A stretch of 64,000 bases of DNA from Malacoraja senta. Its lineage: Eukaryota. The notes beneath the pieces are model-generated. The model saw nothing but the letters and a program-made list of their open reading frames with translations. It had not been told where the DNA came from and searched no databases. A program made the position numbers and the translations under genes. Shown here in pieces: positions 1,701 to 59,849 of the stretch (its first letter is position 1; every line of letters starts with the position of its first letter). Location: contig CM075989.1 in NCBI GenBank assembly GCA_038087875.1, positions 806,001-870,000 of the forward strand, given 5' to 3'.

Positions 1701-3465
1701 AGAGGGATCTAGGAGTGCAGGTGCATGGTTTCTTGAAGGTGGTCGCAGCTAGATAGGCTGGTCAAAAAGGCTGTTGGCACATTGGCTTTCATCAGTCAGA
1801 GTATTGAGTATAAAAGTTGAGAAATCATGTTGGTGAGGCCACATTTAGAGTATAGTGTTTAGTTCTGGGCACCATGTTATAGGAAAGATGTTATCAAGCT
1901 GGAAAGGGTGCAAAGAGAAGATTTACGAGAATGTTGCCAGGAATTGGGACTGAGTTATAGCGCCAGGTTGAATAGGTTGGGACTCTATTCCTTGGAGCGC
2001 AAGAGGATGAGCGGTGATCTTTTAGTGGTGTATAAAATCAGAGGAGGAATAGATCAGATAGATGCACAGTGACTCTTGTTCAGAATAGGGGAATTGAGGA
2101 CCAGAGGACATAGGTTTAAGGGGAAAAGATTTAATGGGAATCTGAGGGGTAACTTTTTCACACGTGGCTGGTGGAGCTGCAAGAGGAGGTAGTTAAGGCA
2201 GGGACTATCGCAATGTTTAAGAAACAGGTACATAGAAATGGACAGGTTTGAAATGATATGGGCCAAATGCAGGCAGGCGGGAATAATGTAGCTGGGACAT
2301 GTTGGCCGGTGTGGTAAAGTTGAAATGAAAGGCCTGTTTCCATGCTGTATGACTCTAAGACATGATAACTCCAGTCTCCTTGCTCCTGTCCAGAGAAGCA
2401 GGTGGCTTTCTCACTCTCACTACCATTCTTTAACACATTGTCGAACATCAGGCCACATTTTTGTTTAAATCTGGTGAAGGCATTTATTAAGGTCAAAAGG
2501 TCATAAGTAATAGGAGTAGATTTAGGCCATTCAGCCCATCAAGTATACTCTGCCATTCAATCATGGCTGATCTATCTTGCCCTCATAACCCCATTCTCAT
2601 GCCTTCCCTCCAAAACCTCTGACACCTGTACTAATCTATCTATCTCTGCCTTAAAAATATCCATTGACTTGGCTTCCACATCCTTCTGTGGCATAGAATT
2701 CCACAGATTCACTACTCTATGACTACAGAAATTTCTCCTCATCTCCTTCCTAAACAAACGTTCTTTAATCCTGAGGCTATGACCTCCAGTCCTAGACTCT
2801 CCCACTAATGGAAACATCCTCTCCACATCCACTCTATCCAAGTCTTTCAATGAGGTCCCCCCTCATTCTTCTAAACTACAGGCCCAGTGCTGACAAATGC
2901 TCATTATATTATTGTAGCTACTTCCCAGTCCATTACTGCTGCTAGAATAGGCATGTTCATTGCAGCCATATCTGTTCCGATGCATACAGAGTTGCTGTTC
3001 CAGTTGTGCATGACACATAAATAACAGAATCAATTGGCTATAAATATTGAAGTCTGCAGTGTGGCTACTCACCCATTTTAACTGGCATCTAGCAACAAAA
3101 TGAAGTAATTCTTTTTGTTGAACAGTTGAGTCCTCTGAGATGATTAAAGCATAATTAGCACTTGTGATTCCTCATGTTCATAAGTCACAGGAGCAGAATT
3201 AGGCCCATCGAATCTACCACATTCAATCATGGCTGATCTATCTTTCCAACCCCATTCTTCTTCCTCCTCTCCATAACTTTTGACATGCTTACTCACCGAG
3301 AATCTGTCAATCTCCACTTTAAAAATATCCAATGACTTGGCCCCAACAGCTGTCCGTGGCGATGAATTCCACAGATACTAATCCATGCCGATCAACATGC
3401 CCCATCTACACTCGTCCCACCTGCCGCATTTAGCCCATTTCCCTCTAAACCTTTCCTATCCATGA
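1700..3465. mobile_element. Cluster of CR1 3' fragments (+ 1700-2362; - 2495-2915; - 3175-3465)
   Basis: GHSLRIK and RVVNLWNS motifs, CR1-type 3' UTRs. Confidence 0.75.
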
Positions 3466-5863: not shown

Positions 5864-6216
5864 AGTGAACATTGGGATGCTGGAGAATGATGCAGGTGTG
5901 ATAATGGGAAGAGTAAATTAATAACTTTTTTGCTTCAGTCTTCACAGTGGAAAACACCAGCAGCGTGCCTGCAATCCTAAAGAGTCAGGGGGTGGAAGTT
6001 AATGGATTGGCGATTACTAAGGAGAAGGTGCTAGGTAAACTGAAAGGTCTGAGGGTGGATAAGTCACCTGGACCGGGAGGACTGCATCCCAGTGTTCTGA
6101 AGGAGGTGGCCTCAGAGATTGTGTGTGATATTTCCAGAACCACTAGAGTTATAAGTGGTTCCTGAAGATTGGAAAATTGCAAATAGCATCACGATGTACA
6201 CAAAGGGAGCAAAGCT

Positions 6217-6358
6217 ACTTCTTCTTCTTGCGTATGGCGTGCACTGCCTAAAGTTGTAGGGCAACTTGTTCTATATAATCTTATTTGATTGTGCATGCCG
6301 GGTTGATTGCATTCGACAAAACAGGGAGGACCACATGACGGTTGCAATCATCCACCCC
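6217..6358 (-). mobile_element. 142-bp short retroposon with HDV-like ribozyme head and RTE-like (AAG)n tail
   Basis: Perfect 12-bp TSD GGGAGCAAAGCT (6205-6216 / 6359-6370); minus-strand tail GCCATACGCAAGAAGAAGAAG. Confidence 0.85.
6305..6358 (-). ncRNA. HDV-like self-cleaving ribozyme (minimal, vestigial P4)
   Basis: Minus strand reads GGGGTGG-AT-GATTGCA-ACC-GTCATGT-GGT-CCTCCCT-GTTTTGT-CGAA-TGCAATC. This gives P1 with a G1.U wobble, a 7-bp P2, a 3-bp P3, a 7-nt L3 and J4/2 CGAA. Confidence 0.7.
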
Positions 6359-6842
6359 GGGAGCAAAGCTGAAAAGCGGAAACTATTGTTAAGATTTGAG
6401 AGTCAATTATAAAGGATGAGGTTGCGCAGTACTTAGAAGTTAGCATGGTTTTGTGAAGGGAAATTTTTGCCTGACGAATCTACTGGGGTTCTTTGAGTAA
6501 GTTAGTAGCAGGATGGCTATATGGTAAATCGATTGTCACTGTACCTTATTTGGTACATGTGACAATAAACTGAACTTGAAACCTTGAACTAGTGTGAATG
6601 GGTGATCAATGGTTGATGTGGACTTGGTGGGTCGAAGGGCCTGTTCCATGCTGTATCTCTAAACTAAACTAAACATTACATGCCTCAACTTTCACGATTG
6701 AACTCAAAAGCCATTCCATTTGTGTCTGAAACAAATAGGCATGCTATTTAAAATGTACAACATCTTGCGGATTGAAGGAGAAGGTGCCCAAATTACATGA
6801 TATGCAAATATAAAATAAGAAACGCAGAAATAAAATTAAAAA

Positions 6843-13460: not shown

Positions 13461-14425
13461 TTATAAGACAGATTTTAGAATAGAATCCGCAAACACCCAT
13501 GGCCTGGTAATCGGTTTGTCATAAAATAACTGAAAAGTTCTTTCACTAGACCATCCTGCCGCTGCAAGGATGTGGTCCATAGGAACTTCCAACCCTTTCG
13601 CTGCCGATGTCGATGCAGCCCTAGTGGAATGAGATTTAAAAACATCAGTGTTCATACCTGCCCAAGCCAACACCTGTCTTAGCCACCTTGAGATGGTTTG
13701 TACTGACACCCTTCTGTGAGGTTTCTTATGACTGATAAATAATGCCAATTCAGTGCCTCTGAGGGGTTGTGTGACCTTGATATATTGTAGCAAATGGGTG
13801 ACTACACATAAACGAAGGTCCATGAGATATGCTCCGAATTCCAATCTGAGACCTGACACCCCTGGTCTGCTCTGTTTGATTAATTCATACACATAGAAAA
13901 TTATTTTATTAGCAGATGTTATCATTGTGTCCAGTTGCAACTTTTGTAGTGACTGGACCCTTTGCGCTGAAACTAGCGCCATAAGCATAACTACTTTATA
14001 AGTTAGCTTGACCAATGACAGGGATGTTGCTGGGGCCCACCCTCGAAGCAGCGTCAGTACAATGCCTATATCCCAAATCTTGGAGTAACGAGGTCTGGGA
14101 GGTTTGGTATTAAAAATACCTTTCATGAGTTTTGCCACCAGTGGGTGAGACCCGACAGCGTGGTGTCCCAACCCTAGCCATAAATAGCACAATTAATGGC
14201 ACTGTAACCCAATCCTTCATCAAAATAAAGACTAGACAAAAACTCTAACACATCTGTCACACATGCTGTGTTATACATGACATTAGACTGTAAGCAGAAC
14301 TTCTCCCATTTCCTAATATAGGAGATATATTGTTTCTTGGTAGAATCCCTGCAAGATGCTGTGATCATGTTCAAGGTTCGATCCGTCAGTCCAAGCCCAA
14401 GATAAGGTCTCTTCAGACTCTGCAA
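13461..14425 (-). pseudogene. DIRS-A tyrosine recombinase (frameshifted: ORFs 14174-14425 and 13461-14192)
   Basis: SAQRVQSL, HSTRAASTS and AAGWSS..F..FY catalytic motifs. Confidence 0.85.
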
Positions 14426-14841
14426 ATTAATAAATGTATCCGGTCATGGCAAGGGTGACTTTCCCCTGTTACTGGATGAACCAGGAAATCAGTGCGTTTA
14501 GAAACGGTCATACAGGGTTCTGATATCGTACCATGACTGAGTAGGCCAGTCAGGTACTACCAAGATACAGTGTCCTGTTGGATCTTTTGTAAGACCCGAC
14601 TGATGAGGCAGAAGGGAGGAAATGCATAGAAAAATAACTCTCCTCAGTGGAGCGAGAACGCATCCATCGCCACTGCTCCCATGCAACATACATTGGCAAT
14701 TGGTGATTAAGCCTGGATGCGAATAGATGGATATCCGGCGTTCCATACCGAGCGATAATGTCGGCGAAAACTTTGCGGTCCAACATCCATTCGATGTTAT
14801 CTTTAGATTTTTGTGACCTGGTGTCCGCCACTATATTAAGC

Positions 14842-16089
14842 TTACCTTGGAAGGTAGGTAGCTGACATCCAAATGTTTCTTTTAATGCACCAGTGCCAAA
14901 TAAGGTTAGCCAAATAATCACAGGATACCGACTTAATTCCACACATGTGATTAATATATGCCACCGCAGTGGTGTTGTCAACATGAAGTTGAACGTGTAA
15001 ATGGTGCATTTCTGTACTGTAAGCCTTTAGCCCATAAAATGCACCCAACAACTCTAAATAATTAATACCATGTGACTTGAATAATGATGATTCATGCACA
15101 TCCCATCTGCCACCACAACTAGATATGGTATTAGTAGCACCCCAACCTTGGGTGCTAGAATCGGTTTGTAAAATAACCGAAGGACTGCTGATTATAATGG
15201 TATTGGAACCATGCCGAATGTTGAGTATCCACCATTGCAATTCAGAAATAGCATTGGCTGGTAACCGCATAGGTCGGTCAAAATGACCAGCATGATTTTT
15301 GAGTGCTTGCACCCTTGCACGTTGTAAATTTTGATAATGCAAGGGTCCAAATTGTGCGGTTGGAAATGCGGCCACTAATTTGCCAATTACCCTGGCTACT
15401 TGTCTAATAGATGGCTGATTAACAACAACAAGGTTGTAGCAGGCCTCTACTAATTCCAATCTCTTGCCCGAGGGCAGAGTCACAGACATGTGAACAGAAT
15501 TAATAGTAAACCCCAAATAATCAATCACCGTGGATGGTGTTAACTTAGGTTTATCTGGATGGTTGAGAAACCCCAATATCTCAAACAAGTGTTTAGTGGC
15601 TGAAACAGCTAATTTAGCTAATTCCAGAGATTTCCCAATGATTAAAATATCATCGAGATAAGCCATGACAATATATTTTTGAGCTCTGAGAAGCGCAACT
15701 GCCGGTTTAATAATTTTTGTAAATAATCTGGGGGCTGAAGTTAACCCATTAGGCAATTCTTTAAACTGCCACAGTTGCCCCATCCAGTTAAATTTCAAAT
15801 ACCCTCGGTGATCCCTATGAATGGGTACCGAATAGTATGCATCTTTGAGGTCGATGCATGCCATAAAGCATCCTTTGGAAATCAAATGTTTGGCAGTAAC
15901 AAAAGTTTCCATGTAAAAATGTTTATACTGCACAAAAGCATTTAGCTCAGAGAAATCAAGGATGATGCGGCATCCACCATCTTTCTTTTTCCTTGTAAAG
16001 ATATTAGAAACAAATTCGTGAGGGTAATGCCGTGACCTCTCAACTACACCTTTTGAATGTAACTTCAAAATTTCTGCATGCACAACCAA
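14842..16089 (-). CDS. DIRS-A reverse transcriptase/RNase H (415-aa open segment)
   Basis: DLKDAYY, LPNGLTSAPRLF, AYLDD, QTDSS..GWGA, INYLEL and DNTTAV motifs. Confidence 0.85.
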   Translation of the reverse strand: MVVHAEILKLHSKGVVERSRHYPHEFVSNIFTRKKKDGGCRIILDFSELNAFVQYKHFYMETFVTAKHLISKGCFMACIDLKDAYYSVPIHRDHRGYLKFNWMGQLWQFKELPNGLTSAPRLFTKIIKPAVALLRAQKYIVMAYLDDILIIGKSLELAKLAVSATKHLFEILGFLNHPDKPKLTPSTVIDYLGFTINSVHMSVTLPSGKRLELVEACYNLVVVNQPSIRQVARVIGKLVAAFPTAQFGPLHYQNLQRARVQALKNHAGHFDRPMRLPANAISELQWWILNIRHGSNTIIISSPSVILQTDSSTQGWGATNTISSCGGRWDVHESSLFKSHGINYLELLGAFYGLKAYSTEMHHLHVQLHVDNTTAVAYINHMCGIKSVSCDYLANLIWHWCIKRNIWMSATYLPR

Positions 16090-16289
16090 ACGTTCCTACT
16101 GAGAAAGCACAAACATCCGGTTAGGCGCATGCTGCGTGGATGGTAACGAATTATCAAGGAACTCAATTTTATACCCTTGTATACTGTGCAGTATAAATGA
16201 GTCAGAGGTTATAGAACTTTCACCAACTTGGAAATAATCTACACACCCCATGCTCCGAAAGGAACCAGACCCACCTAGTGGGTTAGTGA

Positions 16290-19289: not shown

Positions 19290-19525
19290 AGTTTAGTTTA
19301 GTTTAGAGATACAGAGAGGAAACAGGCCCTTCGGACCACTGGTTCCGCGCCGACCAGCGATCCCCGCACACTAACACCATCCTACACCCACTATGGACAT
19401 TTTTACATCTTTGGAGTGTGGGGGGATGGGGAGAACTTACAAACTCAGTACAGACAGCACCCATAGTCGGGATCGAACCCGGGTCTCCGACGCTGCATTC
19501 GCTGTCAGGCAGCTGCACCACCGTG
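19290..19525 (-). mobile_element. HE1/V-SINE-like SINE
   Basis: GGTGGTGCAG head, GGGTTCGATCCCG B-box and (CTAAA)n tail. Confidence 0.8.
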
Positions 19526-19552
19526 AATGAAGGCCTGTTTTAAGTATTAAAT

Positions 19553-20141
19553 AGAGGAGCAAGAGGGTGATCAAGGCGGAGAAAGTGTAGAGGCCAATGC
19601 CCAGGTAGTCCAACTCGCAGGAGTGCAGGTCCACCATGACGACGCTGTGGCCGCGGTGGGCTTTGAGGGAGGCGCAGGTGACATCGGTGACCAGGCGAGG
19701 GATGTAGACCGTGGTCTGATTGATCCACCACACGAACCACCTGGCATCGCAGGTGCAGAGAAAGTGGTTGCCGCTTAGCCGCAGCTCCCGAAGGTGTTTG
19801 ATGGTGCTGTCCGGGAAACTGGAGACCTGGATGGTCTTCAGGTTGTTGTAGCTGAGATCCAGGTACTGCAGGGAGGTGCCGTCCCGCAGGAAGTCCTTGG
19901 TCAGCTTGGAGATCTGGTTGCGGGTGAGGTTGAAGACGCGCAGGGTCTGGGTGCAGTTGGACAGCATGCGAGGCACCGTGGTCAACAGGTTGCTACCGAG
20001 GTCCAGCAGCTCCAACCAGCCTAGCAGGTAAAGCCTGCCCCAGTTGAAGCTCCACAGCTGGTTACCGCTCAGCACAAGCTCCTTGAGTAGCGGGGGCAGG
20101 TGGTCAAACACGTCGTGCGGCATGAGAGCGAGTCTCTTCCC
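19553..20141 (-). pseudogene. TLR7: Toll-like receptor 7-family gene fragment: last LRRs, LRRCT and start of TM; no N-terminus, no TIR domain
   Basis: Uninterrupted frame with LTTVPRMLSNC, LQYLDLSYN, NHFLCTCDARWFVWWINQT and DVTCAS..AHRG.SV..DLHSCELD, colinear with the vertebrate TLR7 ectodomain C-terminus as I recall it; visibly GC-rich against the flanks. Confidence 0.85.
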
Positions 20142-39965: not shown

Positions 39966-40056
39966 AATTATTCATCCTGTCAATTATTTGTACAATTTAC
40001 CGCCATCTGGTAATGATTGGTCCAATTAATTGTTTGTTTGTTTCTTTTTAAATGAG

Positions 40057-40970
40057 GTAACTTGGTGACAATGGTGATCCTGGCTCGGGGAAGATGCGGA
40101 CTGTCCAGATGTATCACTTGGTACCTGATGAGCATGGCGATGGCAGATACACTTGTCCTTCTCACAGCAGTGATACTAAACAGGATTAGTATCATTTATT
40201 TCCCTGTCTTCTTCCTCTACACCACTCCATCCTGTAGCTTCAGAATAACTCTTATCTTTGCTGTCAGAGACAGCTCAGTCTGGCTGACAGTTGCATTCAC
40301 CTTCAATCGGTTTGTAGCCATCTGCTGCCAGAGGCTGAAAACAAGCTACTGCACTGAGAAAATGGGGGCGATTGTTATCTTCACAGTTTGTATTGTGAGT
40401 TCTGTGAGAAACATTCCCTGGTACTTTGTACAGGAGCCTTTATATATTGTTAATGATGTCCAATGGTTCTGTAATATTAAGTTAAGCTTTTATTCCAATT
40501 CTTCATGGATAGCATTTGCTTGGATGGGCCTTATGTTAAACCCATGTGTCCCCTTCCTTCTGATGTTGTTGCTAAACGTTCTGACTGTTCGACACATTCT
40601 GGCTTCAAACAGAGTCCGCGAGAGATTGCAGGTCTGGGGCAAAGGAGAGAATCAGAAAGACCCAGAAATGGAGAGTCGGAAGATGTCCATCATTTTACTA
40701 TTTGCTATCTCAGGAAGTTCTATCCTGTTGTGGGCAACCTATGTTGTAAATATCTTCTATGTCCAATTTACAAACGGTAAATTTGTATCCACCGCTATTC
40801 TCCAGGAAAGTGGCAACATGTTGCTACTGCTGAGTTGCTGCATCAACACGTGTATCTATGGAGTGACCCAGAGGAGGTTCAGACAGGAGTTCAAGAGTGG
40901 GTTGCAATACCCACTAAATATGATCATTAAAATCGTAAAGTCGTGTAAAAGATTCAATACTTTCTACTGA
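40057..40970 (+). CDS. GPR139/142-like class-A GPCR, exon 2 (TM1 end to TM7); full protein 327 aa
   Basis: Open frame with ILARGRCGLS, MAMADTLVL, SVWLTVAFTFNRFVAICC, PCVPF..LLLNVLTVRHIL and NTCIY..TQRRFR; acceptor AG at 40055-40056. Confidence 0.9.
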
Positions 40971-42494: not shown

Positions 42495-45400
42495 TATGTG
42501 CTGGGCTCAGGCTACAGGACAGATTGCACTCATGACTTTTTCCAGGATAAGTCGGGGCCCAACACGTTGGTAGCTTGCTCAGTTCCAGTCTTAATAAGTA
42601 AACGAAAAAGGCAAAACAAGACGCACTCAACTCATTCTGCTAATTTATCGAATTTAGCACCCATTCCTCATCAGCCACAGCCAGCAGATAATGATTTTAA
42701 CACACTAAACCTAACTTTATTAAATGTCAGGTCTTTGGCAGGAAAAACATTTGTAATCAATGATTTTATTATCAGGCACGATCTTGATTGTTTGTTCTTA
42801 ACTGAAACCTGGTTAGATCAAAACAACAGTGCTGCTGTTCTTATTGAATCAACTCCTCCCAACTTCAGTTTTATAAGTGAGGCCAGAGTGCATCAGAAAG
42901 GAGGAGGAGTGGCTGTTCTGTTTAATGATTCCCTCCAATGCAAGCAGATATCTTATGGAAACTTTGCCTCCTTTGAATATGTGGCTGTTAAGTTGAACTC
43001 TTCTTCCCGAGTTATGTTCCTAAATGTCTACAGGCCACCTAAATACTGTGCAGCCTTTTTTGACGAATTTTCTGAACTACTGTCTATAATCTGTATTGAC
43101 TTTGACTGTGTAGTTATTGTTGGTGATTTTAACATTCATGTTGACAAACTCCATGACAAAGGGACTAAAGAACTGTATTGTGTCATTGATAACTATGGAC
43201 TGAATCAGCATGTGACGGAGCCCACACACAACAAAGGTCACACTCTGGACTTAGTCATGTCCAAGGGTGTTAGCATTTCTAAGGTTGTCGTGATTGATGC
43301 TGCCCTCTCTGATCATTCCTGTGTTTTCTTTGAGAGTGCTATCTCTATGCAGACTAATGTTCAAAGAAAATTAATCACAAAACGGTACATAACAGAAAAC
43401 ACCTGTGGAACATTTATTCAGGCTTTCTCCTCCACGCCCACTCTCCCCTGGGTCTCAGTAAATGAGCTTGTTGATAATTTCAATGTGAAAATTACAAATA
43501 TTATTGATGCCATTGCACCCACTAAGGTGAAAGTGGTCCCTGGCAAAAAGAAGTCTCCATGGAGAAACGCCACATTGGTAAAAATTGAAAAAAGAGAGTG
43601 TCGGAAAGCTGAACGTAGGTGGCGGAAAACAAATCTCCAGGTTCACTTTTACATCTATAAAGAAAGACTTCGCATCTACAACTTGGAACTGAGAAATGCA
43701 AGGCAATCCTTCTTCTCTGACATCATTGCCAAAAACAATAATAATGCACGGGCCTTGTTTACTACTGTCGACAGGCTAACAAACCCTCCTGTGTCAGTAG
43801 CCCCTGAATTGCTTTCCACAAGGGCCTGTAATGAATTTGCCTCCTTCTTCACCGACAAAATTCAGAAAATTAGGCAAGCAGTCAGTGCCTCCACATCAGG
43901 TGCAGGACATGTGTTGTCCATGTGTCCATTTATAATCAATTCAAATACCATGACACAATTTTATGTTATTAACCATAAAACCTTGGAGGACATTATACAA
44001 CATTTGAAATCCTCCTCCTGCTGCCTCGATATTCTACCAACAGGCCTTTTCAAAGGTGTATCAAACTGCATGACCTCAGACCTTCTACAGATTGTAAACA
44101 CGTCCCTTCTCTCAGGTGTCTTCCCACAGGCCCTGAAAACTGCTGTTATCAAGCCTCTCTTAAAAAAGAAGAACTTAGACACTTCACTACTGAACAATTA
44201 CAGACCAATATCAAACCTCCCATTTCTCAGTAAAATCATTGAAAAAGCTGTTTTTAAGCAGCTGAACAATTTCATGTTAATGAATAGCTGTTTTGATGTC
44301 TTCCAGTCAGGATTTAGACCACATCACAGCACCGAGACGGCTCTTGTTAAGGTCTTCAATGACATTCACTTAAACACAGACAATGGCAAAATTTCAGTCT
44401 TAGTATTACTAGATCTCAGTGCTGCATTCGACACAGTCGATCACAACATATTACTAGACCGTCTGGAAAACTGGGTGGGACTTTCGGGCACAGCATTAAA
44501 ATGGTTTGAATCCTACTTGAAGGACAGGGACTACTTTGTGTCTATAGGTAATTACACATCTGAGTGTGCAAAAATTACATGTGGAGTTCCCCAGGGCTCC
44601 ATTCTGGGGCATCTTCTGTTTAACATCTACATGCTTCCACTGGCTCAGATCATGAAAAACATCAAAATATGTTACCATAGTTACGCAGACGACACACAAA
44701 TGTACATAACAATATCACCAGGGGGCTATAGTCCAATACAAGCACTGAGTAGATGCATTGAGCAAATCAACGATTGGATGAACCAGAATTTTCTCCAATT
44801 AAACAAAGAAAAAACTGAAATAATTGTTTTTGGAGCCAAGGAAGAACGATTAAAAGTTAGCACCCAGCTTCAAATGATAATGCTAAAAACAACAAACCAA
44901 GCCAGAAACTTAGGAGTAGTCATGGACTCAGACCTGAACTTCAACAGCCACATAAATACAGTCACAAAGTCAGCCTACTATCACCTAAAGAATATATCAA
45001 GGATTAAAGGACTTATGTCTCAGCAGGATTTGGAAAAACTTGTCCATGCATTTATCTTCAGCAGGCTCGACTACTGTAACAGTGTCTTTACAGGTCTCCG
45101 TAAAAAGTCGATCAGCCAGCTGCAGTTAATTCAGAACGCTGCTGCTCGAGTCCTCACTAAGACCAAAAAAGTAGATCACATTACTCCAGTTCTGAGGTCT
45201 TTACACTGGCTTCCTGTCTGTCAAAGAATTGATTTTAAAATACTACTGTTGGTATACAAAGCACTGAATGGTTTAGGGCCAAAATACATTTCTGATCTTC
45301 TGCTTAGCTACGAACCACCCAGACCTCTCAGATCATCTGGGACAGGTCTGCTCTGTGTCCCCAGAGTCAGAACTAAACATGGAGAGGCAGCATTTAGTTT

Positions 45401-45766
45401 TTATGCACCACATATCTGGAACAAACTCCCAGAAAACTGCAGGTCTGCTGCAACTCTCAGCTCTTTTAAATCTAGACTGAAGACTTTTCTGTTTGCCGCT
45501 GCCTTTCAGTAAACAATACAATTTATTGATTACCTATACTGCACTGTAACTTCTATTCCTGGTTTTATTCTATTTTAAATATTTTATTTGATTGCTTTTA
45601 ATTTTGTAATTATTTTATCTGAATAATCTAATAATCATTTTATATCTAAATGTCATTTTATATGTGTTTCTTTCAAATGCTTTAAATGTTTTATGTAAAG
45701 CACTTTGAATTACCTTGTGGTTGAAAGGTGCTATACAAATAAACTTGCTTTGCCTTGCCTTGCCTT
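41290..45766 (+). mobile_element. Near-full-length L2-clade LINE with SGNH-esterase ORF1 and intact ORF2
   Basis: ORF1 IVGDS and HIGSN; ORF2 endonuclease plus RT; 3' GTAAAGCACTTTG..AAAGGTGCTATACAAATAAA + (TTGCC)n. The 5' boundary is uncertain. Confidence 0.92.
42498..45512 (+). CDS. L2 ORF2: APE endonuclease and reverse transcriptase, 1004 aa uninterrupted
   Basis: [48 protein letters not shown]. Confidence 0.93.
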
Positions 45767-50762: not shown

Positions 50763-53700
50763 CTAAGCGAGCTCCCCGCAACGGACAGGCGGCTTGACCA
50801 ACCGGCCATAGCGGGTGCGCAACCCGCATTCCCCCTCAACCGCAGGAGCAGAAGGGACAGAGTCAGGGAAAGCGGTGGGAGAGCCGGGCGGGGAACGAAC
50901 CGGAGACGGAAGAGAACAGCGAGGCGAAACGGGCACGCTGGCAGGCAAGGCAGGGGAAAGAGGCTTGTGAGCGCGGGGCATAGAGAGCTGGGAGGGCAGT
51001 TTCCGCGACATGCGAGGAGTGACAGGGGCTGGCGGAGCCTCGGGCAGAATGGAAGGGATAGGTGGCTGAAACGGGTCCGCGGGAGGCGGAGGAGGCTCGT
51101 TGACGAGCAGGAGGTGCTGGCGTGACCGACGGTAGATAGCGCCCTCATAGTCGACGAGGTATGACCGAGGAGAGCCAGCATTACCAACCACTACGGCCAG
51201 CCTGTAGTGCCCGGAGGGGGACTGCATCCGAACCACCTGGCCCGGGAACAGGCAAGGAAGCGGCCGGGCCGACTTGTCAAAGGAGCGCTTCTGGATGGCT
51301 TTCTTCTCGATGATGCGCTCTGTGACAGCAGCAGAGTTCTGGACTGAGGGTTTGAGGGACTGTTGCGAGACAGGGAGAGGTGGTCTAGTGGTGCGGGACA
51401 TGAGGCGTTGGGCAGGTGAACCGAGCACGGGGTCGCGGGAAATGTTGCGGAGGTTGAGGAGGGCAAGGTAGAAGTCGGAATGTGAAAGGCGGCAGTGTTC
51501 CAGCAGCTCCTTGGCACTGCGGACGGCGCGTTCCGCAAGGCCGTTGCTCTGCGGATACTCAGGGCTGCTGGTTATGTGACGAAAGTTCCAACGGGCAGCG
51601 AAGGCACGGAACTCGGCGCTGGAGAACTGGCTGCCGTTGTCCGATTGGAGGGTCACCGGGGGTCCATGGGTGCAAAAGTGTTGGCGAAGCTTCCCGATGA
51701 CGGCGGCAGAGGTGATGGAAGGCAGCTGATCCACCTCAAACCAACTGGAGTATGAGTCCACCAGGACCAGGAAATGCTTGCCACGCCATTCGAAAAGGTC
51801 CGTGGCAATATACATCCACGGTAGCTCGGGGGCCGGCTGCTGCAGGAGGGGCTGGCGCTGCTGATGAGGCAGGAGACTGTTACAGGCAGCGCAAACGGAG
51901 ACCCTGTCACGGATGTCCTGAGCCATACCTGGCCAGTAGAATTGGCTCTGGGCCTGGGACAAAGTGGCCTCCACCCCGGGTGGCCATCGTGTGCAGTTTG
52001 AAAATAGTGATCCCGCAGAGCGGCCGGCACCACGACCTTGTGACCCTTCACCACCACGCCGTAATGTAGCACTAGTTCATCACGAACCAGGAAGTAGGGC
52101 ACGGCACCAGCCGGCAGGGAAGAGCGTCGGTCAGGCCAACCATGGCGGATAACGTCCGCAAGTTCTTGCAGGGCAGGATCATCAGCAGTGTGTTTGACCA
52201 GGGACTGCATCTGCTGGGATGGAACAATGTTAACATCAGTACCATCAGGTCAGAGGATTCGTACGGGTGGCGGGCAACTGAAGGGAGCGGCGCATGGGAC
52301 AATGTGTCGGCCACAAACATATCTTTGCCCTTGCGGTAGCACAATCCGGAACGTGAAACGCTGGAGCTGCAGCATCATCCGCTGCAACCGGGAAGAGGCG
52401 ACATGGATAGGCTTGTTCAGAATAGTGACCAGTGGCTGGGTGGTCAGTCTCAATGGTGAAGGTGTTGCCCAGAATGTAATCCCTAAACTTGGAGCAGGCG
52501 AACACCACGGCAAGTAGCTCCTTCTCGATCTGTCATAACGTTGCTCGGCAGGGGTCATGGTGCGAGAAGCGTAGGAGACAGTAGCTGCAGGCCGTCATAA
52601 AGCTGCAGACATGCGGCACGAGACCGAACTTAGAGGCATCACAAGTGAGGACAATTGGTCTGTGCAGATCGAAGAACTTGAGAGTCCGGTGTGTGTGTGA
52701 GCCTGGACTTCAGAGCCACGAACGCCGACTGGTGATGCGGGAGCCAGACCCATGCGGAGTCTTCTTGATCAGCTCCCTCAGGGGAGCACTCAGTTCGCTG
52801 AGGTCAGGTACGAACTTCCCCAGGTAATTGACCAGGCCCAGGAAGCGCTGCAGGCCGGGAACGTCAGTAGGAGCGGGCATCTCGGTGACTGCTGATGTTT
52901 TCTGGGGGTCAGGCTTTAAACCCCCTGCCGTGAAAACGTGACCAACGTAAGTGACTTCCGGGACCCGGAACCGACACTTCTTGGGGTTGAGCTTGAGATT
53001 GATTTTACGAGCCCTGTCCAGGACTTTGCGGAGGTGCAGGTCGTGCTCAGCGACGTCCCTCCCGTACACCAGGATGTCATCCACGATGATAGCGCACGGC
53101 AACCCAGCGAACAGCTGTTCCATGGTGCGCTGGAAAACCTCACTAGCCGAGTTGATCCCAAACGGCATACGGAGGAAACGGAACCTGCCGAAAGGTGTGA
53201 TGAAGGTGGTCAGGAATGAGGAACGTTCATCTAAAGGGATCTGCCAGAATGAGCTTTTGGCGTCTAAGACAGAGAAGACAGTGGCAGGACCGACCTGTGC
53301 AGCGACGTCCTCCACCGTCCGCATGGGGTAGTGCGGGCGCTTGATGGCCAGGTTCAGGTCCTTTGGATTAATGCAGATCCGGATCTCGCTCTTATCCTTC
53401 TTGGCAGCGACAACCATGTTTGAGACCCACCTGGTGGCAGCGCTCACCTCCTTGAGGATGCCCATGGTCACCATATCACGCAGAGTAGATTCCACGCGGC
53501 CCTTCATAGCGAAGGAGACGCGGTGGGCCGGTCGAACCACCGGGTCGACACTCGGGTCGACAACGATTTTATAGTCACAGGGCAATTTGCTCAAAATGTC
53601 ATCAAAACGGTCGGGGTATTCGCCCAGGGGGTCCATGGGGGCCTGCACCAGGTCAATTCCGCGGTGGAAAGAAACCAAACCAAGGTCCTGGCACGCACAG

Positions 53701-54869
53701 GCGCCCAGCAGGGTGACGTTGTCAGAATCCAGGAGGTGGAAGGTGAGGGGCCGAGAGGTCTCAAGGACTGTGCAGATAAGCGTGGCCTTCCCCACTGGAA
53801 CTAGAACTCCTCCCCCATAGACATGAAGGCGGGTGTCATCGGGAGTAACTATCTCCCCAGATCTTATCCGCTTGAAAAGGCTGATAGACATAACATTTGA
53901 AAAGGCACCAGTATCGACCTTGGCAGAGAATGAATGACCATTAACAGTAACATGCACAGAGGGATCTGTTATCGTAGCAGGTGCACCCAAAAGCAAAAAC
54001 ACCGTTGAATCACCATGGGAGGAGCTCCTATCAAAGTCCGACTGGTACTGATAACCAAGCGCGCTATCAGGGTCTGCAAGGTTGTTTAAATTCCTCCTTG
54101 GAGCAGGGAGCGGCTTATCACGGGACCGACAAGCCGCCGAAAAGTGGTTCAGTTTGCCACAGGAATTACAAGTCTTACCCTGCGCGGGGCAAACGTTGAA
54201 TTGGTGGAAAGAAAAATTACAATTGGGGCAACGGCGTGGGGTGACCTTAGCGGGCGTTGCGGCGGGGTTTCGTCGTGGCGGACCAGCGTTCCACCGGCGG
54301 CCAGCTGCACCGGTAAAGTTAATGTCCTGGGACACCGGTTAAGACACGGAGCTAACAGCAGAGGCCATACGAGCGGAATACATAGCCTCCCTTAGTGTCA
54401 AATCAGGTTTCATAAGGAGCTCGTCACGCAGCTTAGCGTTCAGGAGACCATTGACGAGGACATCCCTGATCAATTGGTCCGTGGAGATTGTTTCAAGGCG
54501 ACAGCGCCGAGCCATATGACGCAAAGAGGCAATAAAAGCGTCAATATGCTCGCCGGGATTCTGCCGCCTCTGGAAGAATTTAAAGCGTTCAATAATGTTA
54601 TTGGTAGGGATATCACAGAGGGCAGTGAATTTATCAATGAGACATACCGGGTCCCGACGGTCTTCTCCGGGGGCGAAGTCGAATGAAGCATAGTGATCCA
54701 TGGCCTCCGGGCCAGCGAGGTTGAGCAGCAGGTGAGCCTGCACAGCAGGGGTGGCATTAGGATGAGCGATGGCTGTGTAATGTTCAAAGTCGCGCTGGAA
54801 CACAGTCCAGCGGTGGACAATGTCCGTGTCAAAGACCAATATGTCGGGTCGACGACAGGAATTGGACAT
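50763..54869 (-). pseudogene. Gypsy gag-pol (in-frame TAA at 54339-54341; frameshifts in RNase H and integrase N-terminus)
   Basis: ORFs 54339-54869 and 52710-54335 share a frame; further ORFs 52250-52558, 51653-52210 and 50763-51974 (SDNGSQF, SNGLAERAV). Confidence 0.88.
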
Positions 54870-55097: not shown

Positions 55098-58000
55098 TTT
55101 TACTTCGGAGCCACGTGAGTGACTACGTGAAGACCCCGTCCAGCACGCATGCGCGACATTAGCGTTCACGCAGTGCAACAGCGACGACCGGGAGTACAGG
55201 CGCTCCCGCTACACGTCGGTGGAAAACTAAACAGCGGACCATCAGGTAAGTCTTACACTGAGGTCGTAATCCGCAAGCTGTGCTCTGCTCTCTATTCCAG
55301 AGGAACTGGGAACAGGAGCAGCACGGCAAAGGAGAAAACCGCCCCCCGTTCGACTCCAACAGAACGGGAGTGTTCCATCAGTGGGGGGCGAGAGGCGGCA
55401 CCTGGACCGCATATGCGGCGGTCCACCCTCATCGAGACCGAGCCGAGCCCAGTCCCGCTAGCGCAGCCTGATGAGCGGCAGCGGGCTGGAGGAAAAGTTT
55501 TAAAAAAACAAAAAAAAAACGGCCGGTTATGTCTGACTCCGATGAGGAGGCTCTCCGCCTTAGAGTGGCAGAGCTAGCCGCCTGAGCCGAATGGAAAGGC
55601 TCATGGAGCAACTGCTCCAGCGAGACTTGCTTCAGGAGCTAGAGCAGTCTCGCCAGAGGGATCAGGCACTCCCACAGCAGTGCTCTATAAATGCACTGGC
55701 CATCGCTTTCCCCTCAAAGCAGGGCAGCGTTGGCGACCAGGGCTGGGCTGGTCAGGAAGAGGGGTCATTGGCTGAAGATGTCGGGAGTACGCTTGGGGTA
55801 CAGGATCAGGAAGAGCTGCTGGGTGTGGAGATTCGCTACGTGGTTTCACCACGAGCAGGGCGGCCATTGGAGCCAAAATTGGCGGCCAGCATCAACCACC
55901 TGTCCCTCAAACCCCTACAAGACAGGTACTTAATGAGGCACTAGAGCTGGAAAACTGCAGTTCGCTCAATGTACCGGCTGTTAACAGCCAAATCTGGGGG
56001 GGGGGGACAGAGTATCCGGAACCAGGAGCTAAAATCCTCAAGCTCCTGACGACAGGGATAACAGCCTATGCTCGTTCCGTGGATGGGGTGGATATGACCA
56101 CAAACCAGCAAGACACTCTGGCTCTGCTGTGCTACACCCAATATGAGATAAATAACCTCCGCAAGGAGAGAATAAGACCTGCCCTCAATCCCAGGTTTGC
56201 AGGACTGTGTAAAACACCGGCCTCAGAGCCGCAGATCCTGTTATTTGGAAGGACAAGTGAAAGACATGGAGGAGGAGTCCAAAGCATTTGGCCTCATGAG
56301 GGCAGGCCCCGGAACGAGCAGACCCACACAAAAAACCAGACGGCAGTACCCCACCGCGTCCACCAGTCAAGGTCAAATTTATGTCACTGGTGAAAGCTCG
56401 GGGTCCGCATACTATCCCCGAAAGCCTTTTTAGGCCAGGGCCCAGAGCGGACCCCATGGAAAATGCGCCACCCCCAATCAGCAGTACATCAGCAGTACAT
56501 CCAGCAGTATAACGACGGATGAACAAACGGAAGAAAGGAACACTACCATAACTATGGAGGTAGGTGGGTCTGGTTCCTACCAGCATGTAAATGGGGAACT
56601 GTACTAACAGTAGGTGTCTCACGAATGATAGTTATATACTTAACAGTATTCGGGGATACAAAATAGAGTTCATTCACGAAAACATGCCACCAGTACAGCA
56701 CGTACCCCAAAGGGTCTTTACCCTCTCAGTCAAAGAGAAACTATAGGCTCAAGAAGAACTGGTGAGGTTACTTACAAAGGGTGTCATTGAGAAATCCAAA
56801 CATGATCCTTTGGAATTTGTCTCAAATATATTTACCAAAAGTAAAAAAGATGGTGGATGTCGCATCATCATTGACTTAACCTCACTAAATACCTTTGTTA
56901 AGTATGTACATTTCAAAATGGAAACATTTGTAACTGCTAAACAACTGATTTCCAAAGGATACTTTATGGCAAGCATTGATTTAAAAGATGCCTACTATTC
57001 AGTACCCATTCACAAGGGTCATCGCAGATACCTGAAAATTTACCTGGATGGGGCAACTATGGCAGTATAAAGTATTGCCTAATGGGTTGACATCAGCCTT
57101 AGACATATTGTCATGGCGTATCTTGATGATATCCTAATAGTTGGCAAAACCATGGAATTGGCTAAATCAGCTGTATTAGCTACCAAATAATTGTTTGAAA
57201 CCCTGGGTTTGTCATACATCCAGATAAATCTAAGATGACGCCATCCACAACAATGGACTATCTGGGAATCAATTAACTCAATCCACATGTCTGTAACGTT
57301 GCCAAAAGGTAAAGCAGCAGAATTGGCACAGATGTGCAACAATTTAATGGTAAGCAATCGACCAACCATCCGACAAGTGGCAAGAGTAATTGGCAAAATG
57401 GTAGCAGCATTTTCAGCTACACAATTTGGACTCCTGCACTATCAGCACCTACAAAGGGCAAAAGTACAGGCGTTGAAACGACATGCAGGTCACTTTGACA
57501 GATCCATGAAACTACCCATTGAAGCAATATCAGAGTTACAATGGTGGATATAACACATTTGGCATAGTTCCAGCCCTATCATCATCAATAACCCAACGTT
57601 AACTATACAAACAGATGCCAGTGCTCAAGGCTGGGGAGCAACTAATACCATATCCAGCACAGGTGGTAGATGGACTAACCTAGACTCGTCTTTACTACAA
57701 ACACTGGGCATAAATTATTTGGAAATGTTGGGTGCGTTTTATGGTTTTAAAGCATATTCTAGGAATATGCACAACTTGCATGTTCATTTACAAATTGATA
57801 ATATCACGGTGGTGGCCTATATTAACCATATGACCGGAATAAAATCGATATCATGTGACAATTGGGTCAACACAATCTGGTAATGGTGGGTCGATAGACA
57901 TATTTGGCTATCAGCAACTTACCTACCAGGTAAGCTAAATACAGTGCCAGGTCACGCAAATTCAATGATAAACACCGAATGGATGTTAAATCCTAGAGCT

Positions 58001-59849
58001 TTTGCTAAAATTACAAACCAATATGGCACACCAGATATCGATCTCTTTGCATCCAGACTAAATCACCACGTACCAATGTATGTCCCTTGGGAACCACACC
58101 CTGAGGCAGCAGCGATAGATGCATTCGCTCTGAACTGGGGGACCGATTTCTTCTATGCTTTTTCCCCTTCTGCCTTAATCTGTAGGGTACTACGCAAAAT
58201 ACAGATGGACTCTGCTTCAGGTATTTTGATAGTACCAACTGGCCTACACAGCCATGGTTCCCAGTGGTCCTCGACATGGTCATCGAAACTCCTATGACTT
58301 TTCCCAGTAGCCCAGACCTATTGACGCACCCTGTATCAGGCATAAGTCATCCATGCCATGCCAAAATTAACCTACTGGGTTGCAGATTATCAAAAGACCA
58401 CTGCTGGGACTGGGATTGTCTGACAGGACCATCAACATGATGACACCGTATGTCCACCAGGAAACAATACCTATCGAGCATCAGGAAGTGGGAAAGATAC
58501 TGCTCGACTACTGGGACAACGTACTCATCTGCAACCATAACCAATGTACTGGAGTTCTGGGGGGCCTTCACCATAATGAAGGATTGAGCTACAGCGCCAT
58601 CAATACTGCCAGACGTGCGCTGTCAGCCTACTTAAAACAGGTGCCAGGACAACAGGCCATAGGGTCTCACCCGCTGGTGATCAAACTCATGAGGAGTATC
58701 GTCAACTCCAACCCTCTTAGACCTAGGTATACACAAATCTGGGATGTCAGTGTGGTCCTGACATACCTAAGGGGATGGTCCCCAGCCAGGTCTCTCACCC
58801 TGGAAAAGCTAACCCTGAAAATGGTCATGCTGATGCTACTAGTCTCAGCACAAAGAGTCCAGTCCCTCCACTTACTGCGACTGGACAACATGGTTATAAC
58901 ACCAGACCGGGTCTCATTCACCATTCAGGAGCTGCTAAAGCAGAGCAAGCAAGGAACTTGAGTCCTAGTTATGGATTTCCGGGCATACCCACCTGACCTA
59001 CGGTTGTGTGTCATGACTTACTTATTCACTTACAACAACACAACAAGAGATTCTCGAGGGAGAAAGGGAAAAAAAAAAAAAAAAAAAAAAAAAAAAAGCC
59101 TTATGGGTCAGCCACAAGAAACATCATGGTTGGGTGTCGAGCCAAACCATCTCGAGATGGCTCAAGCAGGTACTGGGAGCTGCTGGAGTAGATACTGATG
59201 TATATACATCTCACTCCACCAGGGCAGCATCCACATCGGCGGCTAAAAGAATGAACATGGAGAAAACGTTCCAAACGTTCTACCACAAGCCGCTAGCAGA
59301 ACCTGTGTTATTTGCAGAAAGAGTTTTAAAATCTGCAAAAATATATAATTTAAGCCCGGGGGAGCATTTTATCTTTTGTTATTGTTTAATAGATACCATT
59401 ATTGTTTACAAACAGATTATGGTTGATTACGATAACATACTTCCTCCCTTGAATGACTTCGGCAGCGAGTGAAGTATGAACTGTTACACGGTTTGAAATC
59501 ACAGAGCTTTGAAGTCTTCACGAAGTCACTCACGTGACTCCGAAGTAAAATAGTAAGATTAAACGAGAACTTACCAGTTTGAAGTTTGATCTGTATTTTA
59601 TGAGGAGTTACGATGAGGGATTACGTGCCCTCCGCTCCCACCCTCAAATATATAGATCAACAGGTATCTTAGTTCTCCTTTTCTTTACTATGTTTATTTC
59701 AATTATTGTGTTTCCTGTGATTCCACACCGCTGCTTTGAAGAATGTCGCGCATGCGTGCTGGACGGGGTCTTCACGTAATCCCTCATCGTAACTCCTCAT
59801 AAAATACAGATCAAACTTCAAACTGGTAAGTTCTCGTTTAATCTTACTA
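55098..59849 (+). mobile_element. DIRS retrotransposon C (complete termini, decayed ORFs) inside the Gypsy LTR
   Basis: 5' TTTTACTTCGG; perfect ITR GTGAAGACCCCGTCCAGCACGCATGCGCGACATT; ICR ~59515-59627; RT DLKDAYY and YLDD; YR HSTRAAS. Confidence 0.95.

Follow-up and report, generated by a model that had tools for sequence, protein, structure and literature searches.

The closest described systems are those of trypanosomes, in which the short elements NARTc and RIME consist of the first ~77 and the last ~30 nt of the LINEs L1Tc and ingi, respectively (PMC3383444, PMC4035085, PMC3185411). In the case of L1Tc/NARTc, cleavage has been demonstrated and works in the way proposed here (PMC3383444, PMC3185411, PMC4035085). 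Ribozyme-headed non-autonomous elements that arose by internal deletion, the R2 SIDEs and R2/R1 hybrids, have also been described in Drosophila (PMC3414825), while the hedgehog derivatives of Vingi-1_EE represent several independent products of internal deletion in a Vingi-type partner (PMC5786205). Vingi elements are compact, have a single ORF and lack the RNase H of the sister Ingi elements (PMC13708176); they are not among the ribozyme-bearing clades given in PMC5786205. The P4-less HDV-like form is, according to PMC10879173, reported almost only from phages.

The 64,000-nt stretch of Malacoraja senta DNA analysed here (the window) contains a 142-bp insert (the mini-element) that belongs to the bipartite NARTc/RIME class, the architecture of which is already known from trypanosomes and flies. 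We consider it highly probable that the mini-element is a bipartite derivative of a Vingi-type LINE, mobilised in trans by this LINE and headed by a minimal self-cutting HDV-like ribozyme.

The insert and its ribozyme-type fold

The mini-element is read on the minus strand and lies, as the first-pass annotation of this DNA had stated, between perfect 12-bp TSDs, the two copies of which are identical. Its host sequence is a LINE that we take to be an old one of CR1 type. The features of the locus are as follows (window positions).

5910-6514, plus strand: decayed LINE ORF fragment split by the insert (found by tblastn, the queries being RT ORFs of the window itself)
6205-6216, plus strand: TSD copy adjoining the 3' tail of the element
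6217-6358, minus strand: whole non-autonomous element, a bipartite LINE derivative of 142 bp
6218-6264, minus strand: LINE 3'-end-derived part of ~47 nt, with the last ORF codons, the stop, a short 3' UTR and the (AAG)n tail
6265-6277, minus strand: junction filler of ~13 nt, in part repeating the end of the 5' part (by eye)
6278-6358, minus strand: LINE 5'-end-derived part of ~81 nt from the very start of the LINE (alignment with LINE copy L112: 70 of 80 letters identical)
6236-6299, minus strand: stem of the LINE-5' arm 6299-6291 with the LINE-3' arm 6244-6236
6305-6358, minus strand: 54-nt P4-less HDV-like fold, decayed in the window copy
6358-6352 / 6329-6323, minus strand: P1 of the fold
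6349-6343 / 6311-6305, minus strand: P2 of the fold
6342-6340 / 6332-6330, minus strand: P3 of the fold
6339-6333, minus strand: L3, 7 nt
6322-6321, minus strand: J1.1/4
6320-6316, minus strand: 5-nt linker in place of P4
6315-6312, minus strand: J4/2 (CGAA), with the candidate catalytic C at 6315, which is element position 44
6359-6370, plus strand: TSD copy directly next to G1 of the fold

The TAG stop of the LINE ORF in the 3'-derived part is located at 6250-6248 (minus strand). The stem downstream of the fold, already noticed in the first-pass annotation, is formed by 8 of 9 pairs in the window copy; it includes the palindrome GTGCAC, which makes chance pairing easier. Neither an A box nor a B box was matched by the two patterns used, in agreement with the earlier remark that Pol III boxes are absent.

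The layout of P1, P2, P3, the 7-nt L3 and J4/2 proposed previously, as well as the position of the candidate catalytic C, was borne out. What had been described as a vestigial P4 is in fact the absence of P4. In the window copy, 17 of the 18 pairs are standard, the exception being the U-U pair 5-32 in P1, and P1.1 consists of the single pair C22-G37. The signs of decay in this copy are U20G, C24U and the P1 mismatch. While the mismatch had been rightly noticed, it is not a property of the family, as P1 is fully paired in the family majority; the odd L3 is likewise copy-specific, the majority L3 being UUCACGU. The core pattern of HDV-like ribozymes, which we assume to comprise the G1 wobble, an L3 of U-Y-C-x-C-G-Y, a G after P1 and a C-N-R-A J4/2, is present in the family majority and in the LINE heads, and is not present in the window copy because of U20G and C24U. 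Judging by these letters, the window copy is a worn member of its family, and it probably cleaves poorly or not at all.

An HDV descriptor found exactly one site in the window, namely this insert, and none in three shuffles of 80 metagenome loci. A search of Rfam with the window copy gave no match at E<=10. Better preserved sister copies matched the HDV-F-prausnitzii model with 17.5 and 14.4 bits (E 2.8 and 2.1), which is below its gathering cut-off of 44 bits, and these sub-threshold matches cover precisely element positions 1-54. No curated HDV-like family of Rfam was found at its gathering score in the window copy or sister copies, and the CPEB3 model matched neither the window copy nor the tested sister copies.

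Apart from the insert, the window contains an RT beside a tyrosine recombinase (Pfam) at 13464-16095 (minus strand), with a related stretch at 56755-58901; the former is presumably a DIRS-type retrotransposon. Protease, RT and integrase domains (Pfam) at 50766-54338 (minus strand) mark what we take to be a Gypsy-type LTR retrotransposon. A well-preserved LINE at 42495-45512 (plus strand) has an open endonuclease and RT frame of 1,005 aa with a 308-aa open frame directly upstream. Frames of a rhodopsin-family GPCR (40056-40970, plus strand) and of a leucine-rich-repeat protein (19437-20141, minus strand) were also recognised with Pfam. Elsewhere in the genome, many identical 1,277-aa open frames (e.g., C19:10940383; L095, L194) represent a young LINE family that is presumably I/Nimb-like.

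The family in the genome and its partner LINE

The claim of a multi-copy non-autonomous family is supported by exact motif matches in the window's genome (1.94 Gb): a 29-nt motif of the head occurs 4,082 times and a 25-nt motif of the tail 3,799 times, as compared with no match for the reversed motifs used as controls. Within the initial 8.4 Mb of contig 1, the head was matched at 21 places, nine of which also match the tail, and this overlap gives a rough estimate of about 9,000 copies; an exact 35-nt core motif is present at 2,314 places. All 30 head-selected loci are short elements, and the mini-element is far more numerous than full-length LINEs. The 30 tail-selected loci, which are unbiased with respect to the head, start at positions 1-3 in 25 cases, are 5'-truncated in three and have LINE-type ends in two. 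A TSD of at least 9 bp (median 12 bp) was found within 2 nt of G1 in 55 of 71 full-length copies. The 5' ends of genomic copies, for which raggedness had been named as a point to check, are sharp at G1, and the predicted cut site coincides with the 5' boundary of the element, as had been proposed. Insertion sites are dispersed, without a tie to one transcribed target. Measured against one reference copy, divergence is 1.5-14.7%, a range that also covers differences between subfamilies, and the amplification burst appears to be old. All pairs and core letters are kept in 13 of 25 copies.

Comparison of mini copy L029 with LINE L112 over positions 60-68 indicates one change in the main mini subfamily that perfects the arm-to-arm stem (9/9 vs. 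8/9 pairs). A hairpin of 6 bp also joins the filler to the tail. Copies of two subfamilies (L027/L028 at 2992-3121, and L056) are devoid of the 3' strand of P1 due to an 11-nt deletion between short repeats.

In one of the tail-selected loci (L061), the same tail runs upstream into coding sequence. A search of the genome with this locus gave 2,127 first-look candidates; the longest open frame among the 150 of them that were scored is 449 aa. A search with the N-terminal region of the partner gave only 22 candidates. An attempt to find the partner via PF14529 was abandoned, as the eight regions from its top matches turned out to be other LINE families without the head. The partner is a LINE of ~3.1 kb from the same genome with one endonuclease and reverse transcriptase ORF ending in a Cys/His knuckle, and L101 is its near full-length copy. 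In seven of the 12 LINE upstream regions fetched, the head is present at the latest from position 9 onwards, while the other five start further in; the order is head, ~27 shared nt and ORF start. The LINE 3' ends have the tail of the mini-element in common. The window copy aligns to the partner over 81 nt at the LINE 5' end and 47 nt at its 3' end, with the filler in between; both ends are common to one autonomous LINE and the interior is missing.

A second, independent derivative of the LINE (L058/L059, position 1501, minus strand) has a different internal-deletion junction. On L101, its joint connects 363/364 to 3342 and is seen directly in runs X1 and X7, i.e., in two of four runs among the rows shown, while all 30 bins of L101 are covered by contigs from all four runs (four organisms). 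In three of the 5'-inverted copies of the LINE (L109-L111), the end of the inverted segment coincides with the first G of the head or lies a few bases from it, which would fit a template RNA that starts at this G. Many of the LINE copies that keep the 5' region are 5'-inverted in a manner of the twin-priming type (L100, L106, L107, L109, L110, L111). Since no intact copy was seen among the LINE copies examined in the window's genome, the LINE family is probably no longer active.

The homologue P0003 of the partner is full length (1,019 aa), has endonuclease and RT domains and a C-terminal Cys/His knuckle, and is 77% identical to L101 in its RT. RNase H was found neither in P0003 at E<=1 nor in the 120 partner relatives listed, and is present in five of nine scanned metagenome ORFs, all of them more distant relatives. 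PF20049, which we take to be a marker of RTE elements, occurs in none of the 120 partner relatives listed, as compared with all of the 120 RTE-type proteins listed. In the RT tree, the partner belongs to an 8-row clade (support 97/96), and its RT identity is 45-77% within this clade, 28-33% to the RNase H-bearing relatives and 23-26% to the RTE-type proteins. The latter form their own 100/100 clade, with the partner outside it, and the RTE branch is placed beside the partner clade with a support of 66/70, the deep branches being weakly supported. The second tree included six RTE rows and left out P0050, P0081, P0120 and the partial L193. As the rows of the RT tree comprise no Repbase-labelled Vingi or Ingi protein, the Vingi label rests on features, namely a compact single ORF with APE endonuclease and RT and without RNase H, and on the likeness of heads: the 5' end of the Repbase-named Vingi-2_Gav has the same L3, P1 end and CGAA J4/2 as the mini-element (PMC5786205 supplement). 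A PDB search retrieved RTs of L1, R2 and group II introns and no others, and a search of the protein atlas returned unnamed RT clusters; neither named a clade. Taken together, the sequence features fit a Vingi-type partner rather than an RTE.

The first-pass annotation had instead proposed that the family is SINE-like and that an RTE LINE copies it. RTE-type elements do occur in the window's genome, RTE elements are known to bear HDV-like heads and to yield bipartite derivatives (PMC5786205), and a topology in which one RTE row was forced together with the partner could not be rejected by an AU test (p 0.114), this test referring to the first tree, in which the RTE row was long-branched. However, the LINE that has both shared ends is devoid of PF20049 and has the Cys/His knuckle at its C-terminus, and its RT is far closer to its own clade than to RTE-type proteins, so that an RTE partner is largely refuted and retains next to no probability. 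Assignment of the partner to Ingi elements or to an unnamed lineage of the I group instead of Vingi, although very unlikely in our opinion, gains something from the composition of the comparison, made without a labelled Vingi protein, and from the fact that, outside the family, the closest rows are elements with long ORFs and an RNase H, at 31-33% RT identity. The lack of RNase H in the full-length homologue and in the relatives listed speaks against it, since this very absence separates Vingi from Ingi (PMC13708176), and so does the resemblance of the head to that of Vingi-2_Gav.

Given the shared LINE ends and the non-RTE partner, our comparisons identify the mini-element as an internal-deletion derivative of the Vingi-type partner LINE, like NARTc, RIME or the hedgehog Vingi derivatives, and not as a SINE with an independently acquired head. 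A tRNA-type SINE was rejected on the grounds that the A/B box pattern is absent and the head is derived from the LINE; Rfam revealed no tRNA, 5S or 7SL match in the window copy and sister copies. Thus, of the SINE-like retroposon proposed earlier, the multiple copies and the absence of Pol III boxes stand and the SINE nature does not, and the autonomous element sharing head and tail that had been recommended as a search target does exist, as a Vingi-type LINE and not as an RTE. A protein named by its source as that of the eel Synaphobranchus kaupii (P0002) is 74% identical to a 101-aa C-terminal part of the partner LINE, and horizontal transfer is a possible explanation of this similarity.

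Conservation of the fold and the proposed mode of spread

Conservation of the pairing, another point that had been put forward for checking, was found in the genomic copies: 432 of 445 cells are paired in 25 copies, and P1, P2, P3 and P1.1 form a nested double pseudoknot. Such within-family copies say little on selection because they decay after insertion. The lineage-level letter changes in the head, at position 8, at position 32 (U-A vs. U.G) and at position 45 (CUAA vs. CGAA), all preserve the fold. Among metagenome relatives (80 loci), five have HDV-type heads that differ in P1, P2 and P3 sequence. In an alignment of 13 heads, including five rows from other organisms, 93% of cells are paired and both sides change in 11 of 18 pairs, none of 500 shuffles reaching the observed level and slid alignments being 35-47% paired; these figures are inflated because the 13 rows correspond to about four independent lineages, the five relatives were chosen by a descriptor for their pairing, and two rows are out of register in P2. 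The compensatory changes are supportive of a fold that may be under selection. None of the 13 heads deviates at C44 or A46.

A model built from the 13-row alignment detected 12 metagenome heads at E<1e-4. Seven of them are outside the training set (E<=3.2e-5) and lie in loci of related LINEs. In six of these seven cases, the head is on the coding strand and precedes the first N-terminal protein match by 39-141 nt. After exclusion of two distant relatives and two with less than 100 nt of upstream sequence from the 21 with an N-terminal match, the head is present in nine of 17 relatives, and in the remaining eight the model has no match at E<1e-4. No HDV-type head was detected within 375-480 nt upstream of the intact same-clade ORFs L113 and L117.

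The mechanism that we propose proceeds from the bipartite origin, the shared tail, the TSDs, the 5' end at G1 and the HDV-type pairing and core that the copies display. The ~3.1-kb Vingi-type LINE would have lost its interior, to yield a ~140-nt RNA composed of its first ~81 and last ~47 nt. The endonuclease/RT of the LINE would recognise the shared 3' end with the (AAG)n tail and copy the mini-element in trans by target-primed reverse transcription, with ~12-bp TSDs as a consequence of this mode of insertion. The first 54 nt would fold as a minimal HDV-like ribozyme cutting just 5' of G1, and a read-through transcript over a copy would in this way release a unit-length RNA that keeps the ribozyme, which each new copy would inherit. 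Both the self-cleavage 5' of G1, with release of the unit-length RNA, and the trans-mobilisation of the mini-element by the LINE protein are what we infer from the sequences.

Two parts of this scheme may be questioned. The head might at the same time serve as an internal Pol II promoter, like Pr77 of L1Tc/NARTc, with the ribozyme only trimming read-through RNA. This option, which concerns the description of the element as promoterless and leaves the rest of the scheme intact, we treat as a plausible minority view: the first 77 nt of L1Tc/NARTc are promoter and ribozyme in one (PMC3383444), the ~81 nt kept from the LINE 5' end extend 27 nt past the fold, and the dispersed insertions have no single transcribed target. 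The sharp 5' ends are compatible with both models, and RTE and baggins elements with ribozyme heads are said in a review to have no promoters (PMC6765202). It is considerably less probable that the HDV-fold head no longer cuts, and persists as a protein-binding or end-protecting structure, or that catalysis is blocked because the 5-nt linker is too short or a competing hairpin of two pairs and a UUCG loop (37-44) sequesters G37 together with the catalytic C. The missing P4, the competing hairpin visible in the sequence, the sub-threshold Rfam scores and the minimum-energy fold of the whole mini-element, which is without P1 (though the program cannot fold pseudoknots), could be read in this way. 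Nevertheless, P4-less HDV-like ribozymes exist, theta ribozymes cleave in vitro (PMC10879173), C44 and A46 do not vary and the element boundary is at G1, and in the case of the LINE head alone, the minimum-energy structure consists of P1 and P3. A head that cuts, in a bipartite Vingi derivative, remains the reading that we prefer.

Comparison with known ribozymes and retrotransposons

Two printed sequences from the supplements of PMC8233481 and PMC5786205, independent of this window, allow the elephant CPEB3 ribozyme to be compared with the 5' end of the crocodilian Vingi-2_Gav. By eye and in one common register, 52 of 54 positions are identical when the inner part of P4 is left aside, namely 38 of 40 over positions 2-41 and all 14 at the 3' end. 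In the alligator SINE2-1_AMi, the 7-bp P4 stem is that of CPEB3, the 4-nt loop being the one difference in this region. These identities suggest that the CPEB3 ribozyme may be a Vingi head by origin. The literature search revealed no paper in which CPEB3 and Vingi occur together and no match to a 20-nt Vingi-2_Gav motif, and neither 'transpos' nor 'origin' occurs in the main text of PMC8233481.

We lean, by a small degree, towards the wider view that many Vingi LINEs start with an HDV-like ribozyme, that the P4-less 54-nt form spread through an animal genome in thousands of cleavage-competent copies, and that CPEB3 is a domesticated Vingi head. If this is true, host pre-mRNAs would be cut by those copies that lie in transcribed introns, the CPEB3 intron ribozyme would have a retrotransposon origin, and the mini-element family would be a live model of the emergence of such ribozymes. 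With the CPEB3/Vingi match, it becomes possible to test directly where the best-known ribozyme of mammals came from. Vingi elements are also under development as gene-insertion tools, with donor RNAs that keep the 5' UTR (PMC13708176), and the 142-nt element displays a natural minimal set of Vingi cis signals.

No description of the mini-element family or of a Vingi ribozyme was found in the literature, although Repbase or Dfam may already catalogue the family. As far as the literature searched goes, a minimal HDV-like fold without P4 at the head of a LINE of an animal is new, its core being matched exactly by at least 2,314 copies, and so are a predicted ribozyme in the Vingi clade and the likeness of CPEB3 to a Vingi head. 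With the CPEB3 ribozyme and Vingi-2_Gav, the mini-element shares the numbering, an identical L3 (20-26) and identical positions 33-38, as well as the G1.U pair, the single-pair P1.1 and the CGAA J4/2; it differs from them in P2 and P3 sequences and in that they have P4 (PMC8233481 and PMC5786205 supplements). NARTc and RIME resemble it in having an HDV-like ribozyme that cuts just before +1, a single-pair P1.1 and dispersed insertions. Unlike them, the mini-element resides in an animal, has a partner without RNase H, is 142 nt long as compared with 263 nt, ends in an (AAG)n tail and not in poly(A), and lacks P4; its cleavage is predicted only. The R2 SIDEs of Drosophila are specific to an rDNA site and depend on co-transcription with rRNA (PMC3414825), whereas the mini-element is dispersed. 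The fold itself is closest in form to the minimal HDV-like and theta ribozymes, which are likewise devoid of P4, comprise ~54 nt and have C as the first letter of J4/2. However, nearly 99% of those ribozymes are found in phages, often linked to tRNAs (PMC10879173), whereas here the fold stands at the head of animal retrotransposons in thousands of copies.
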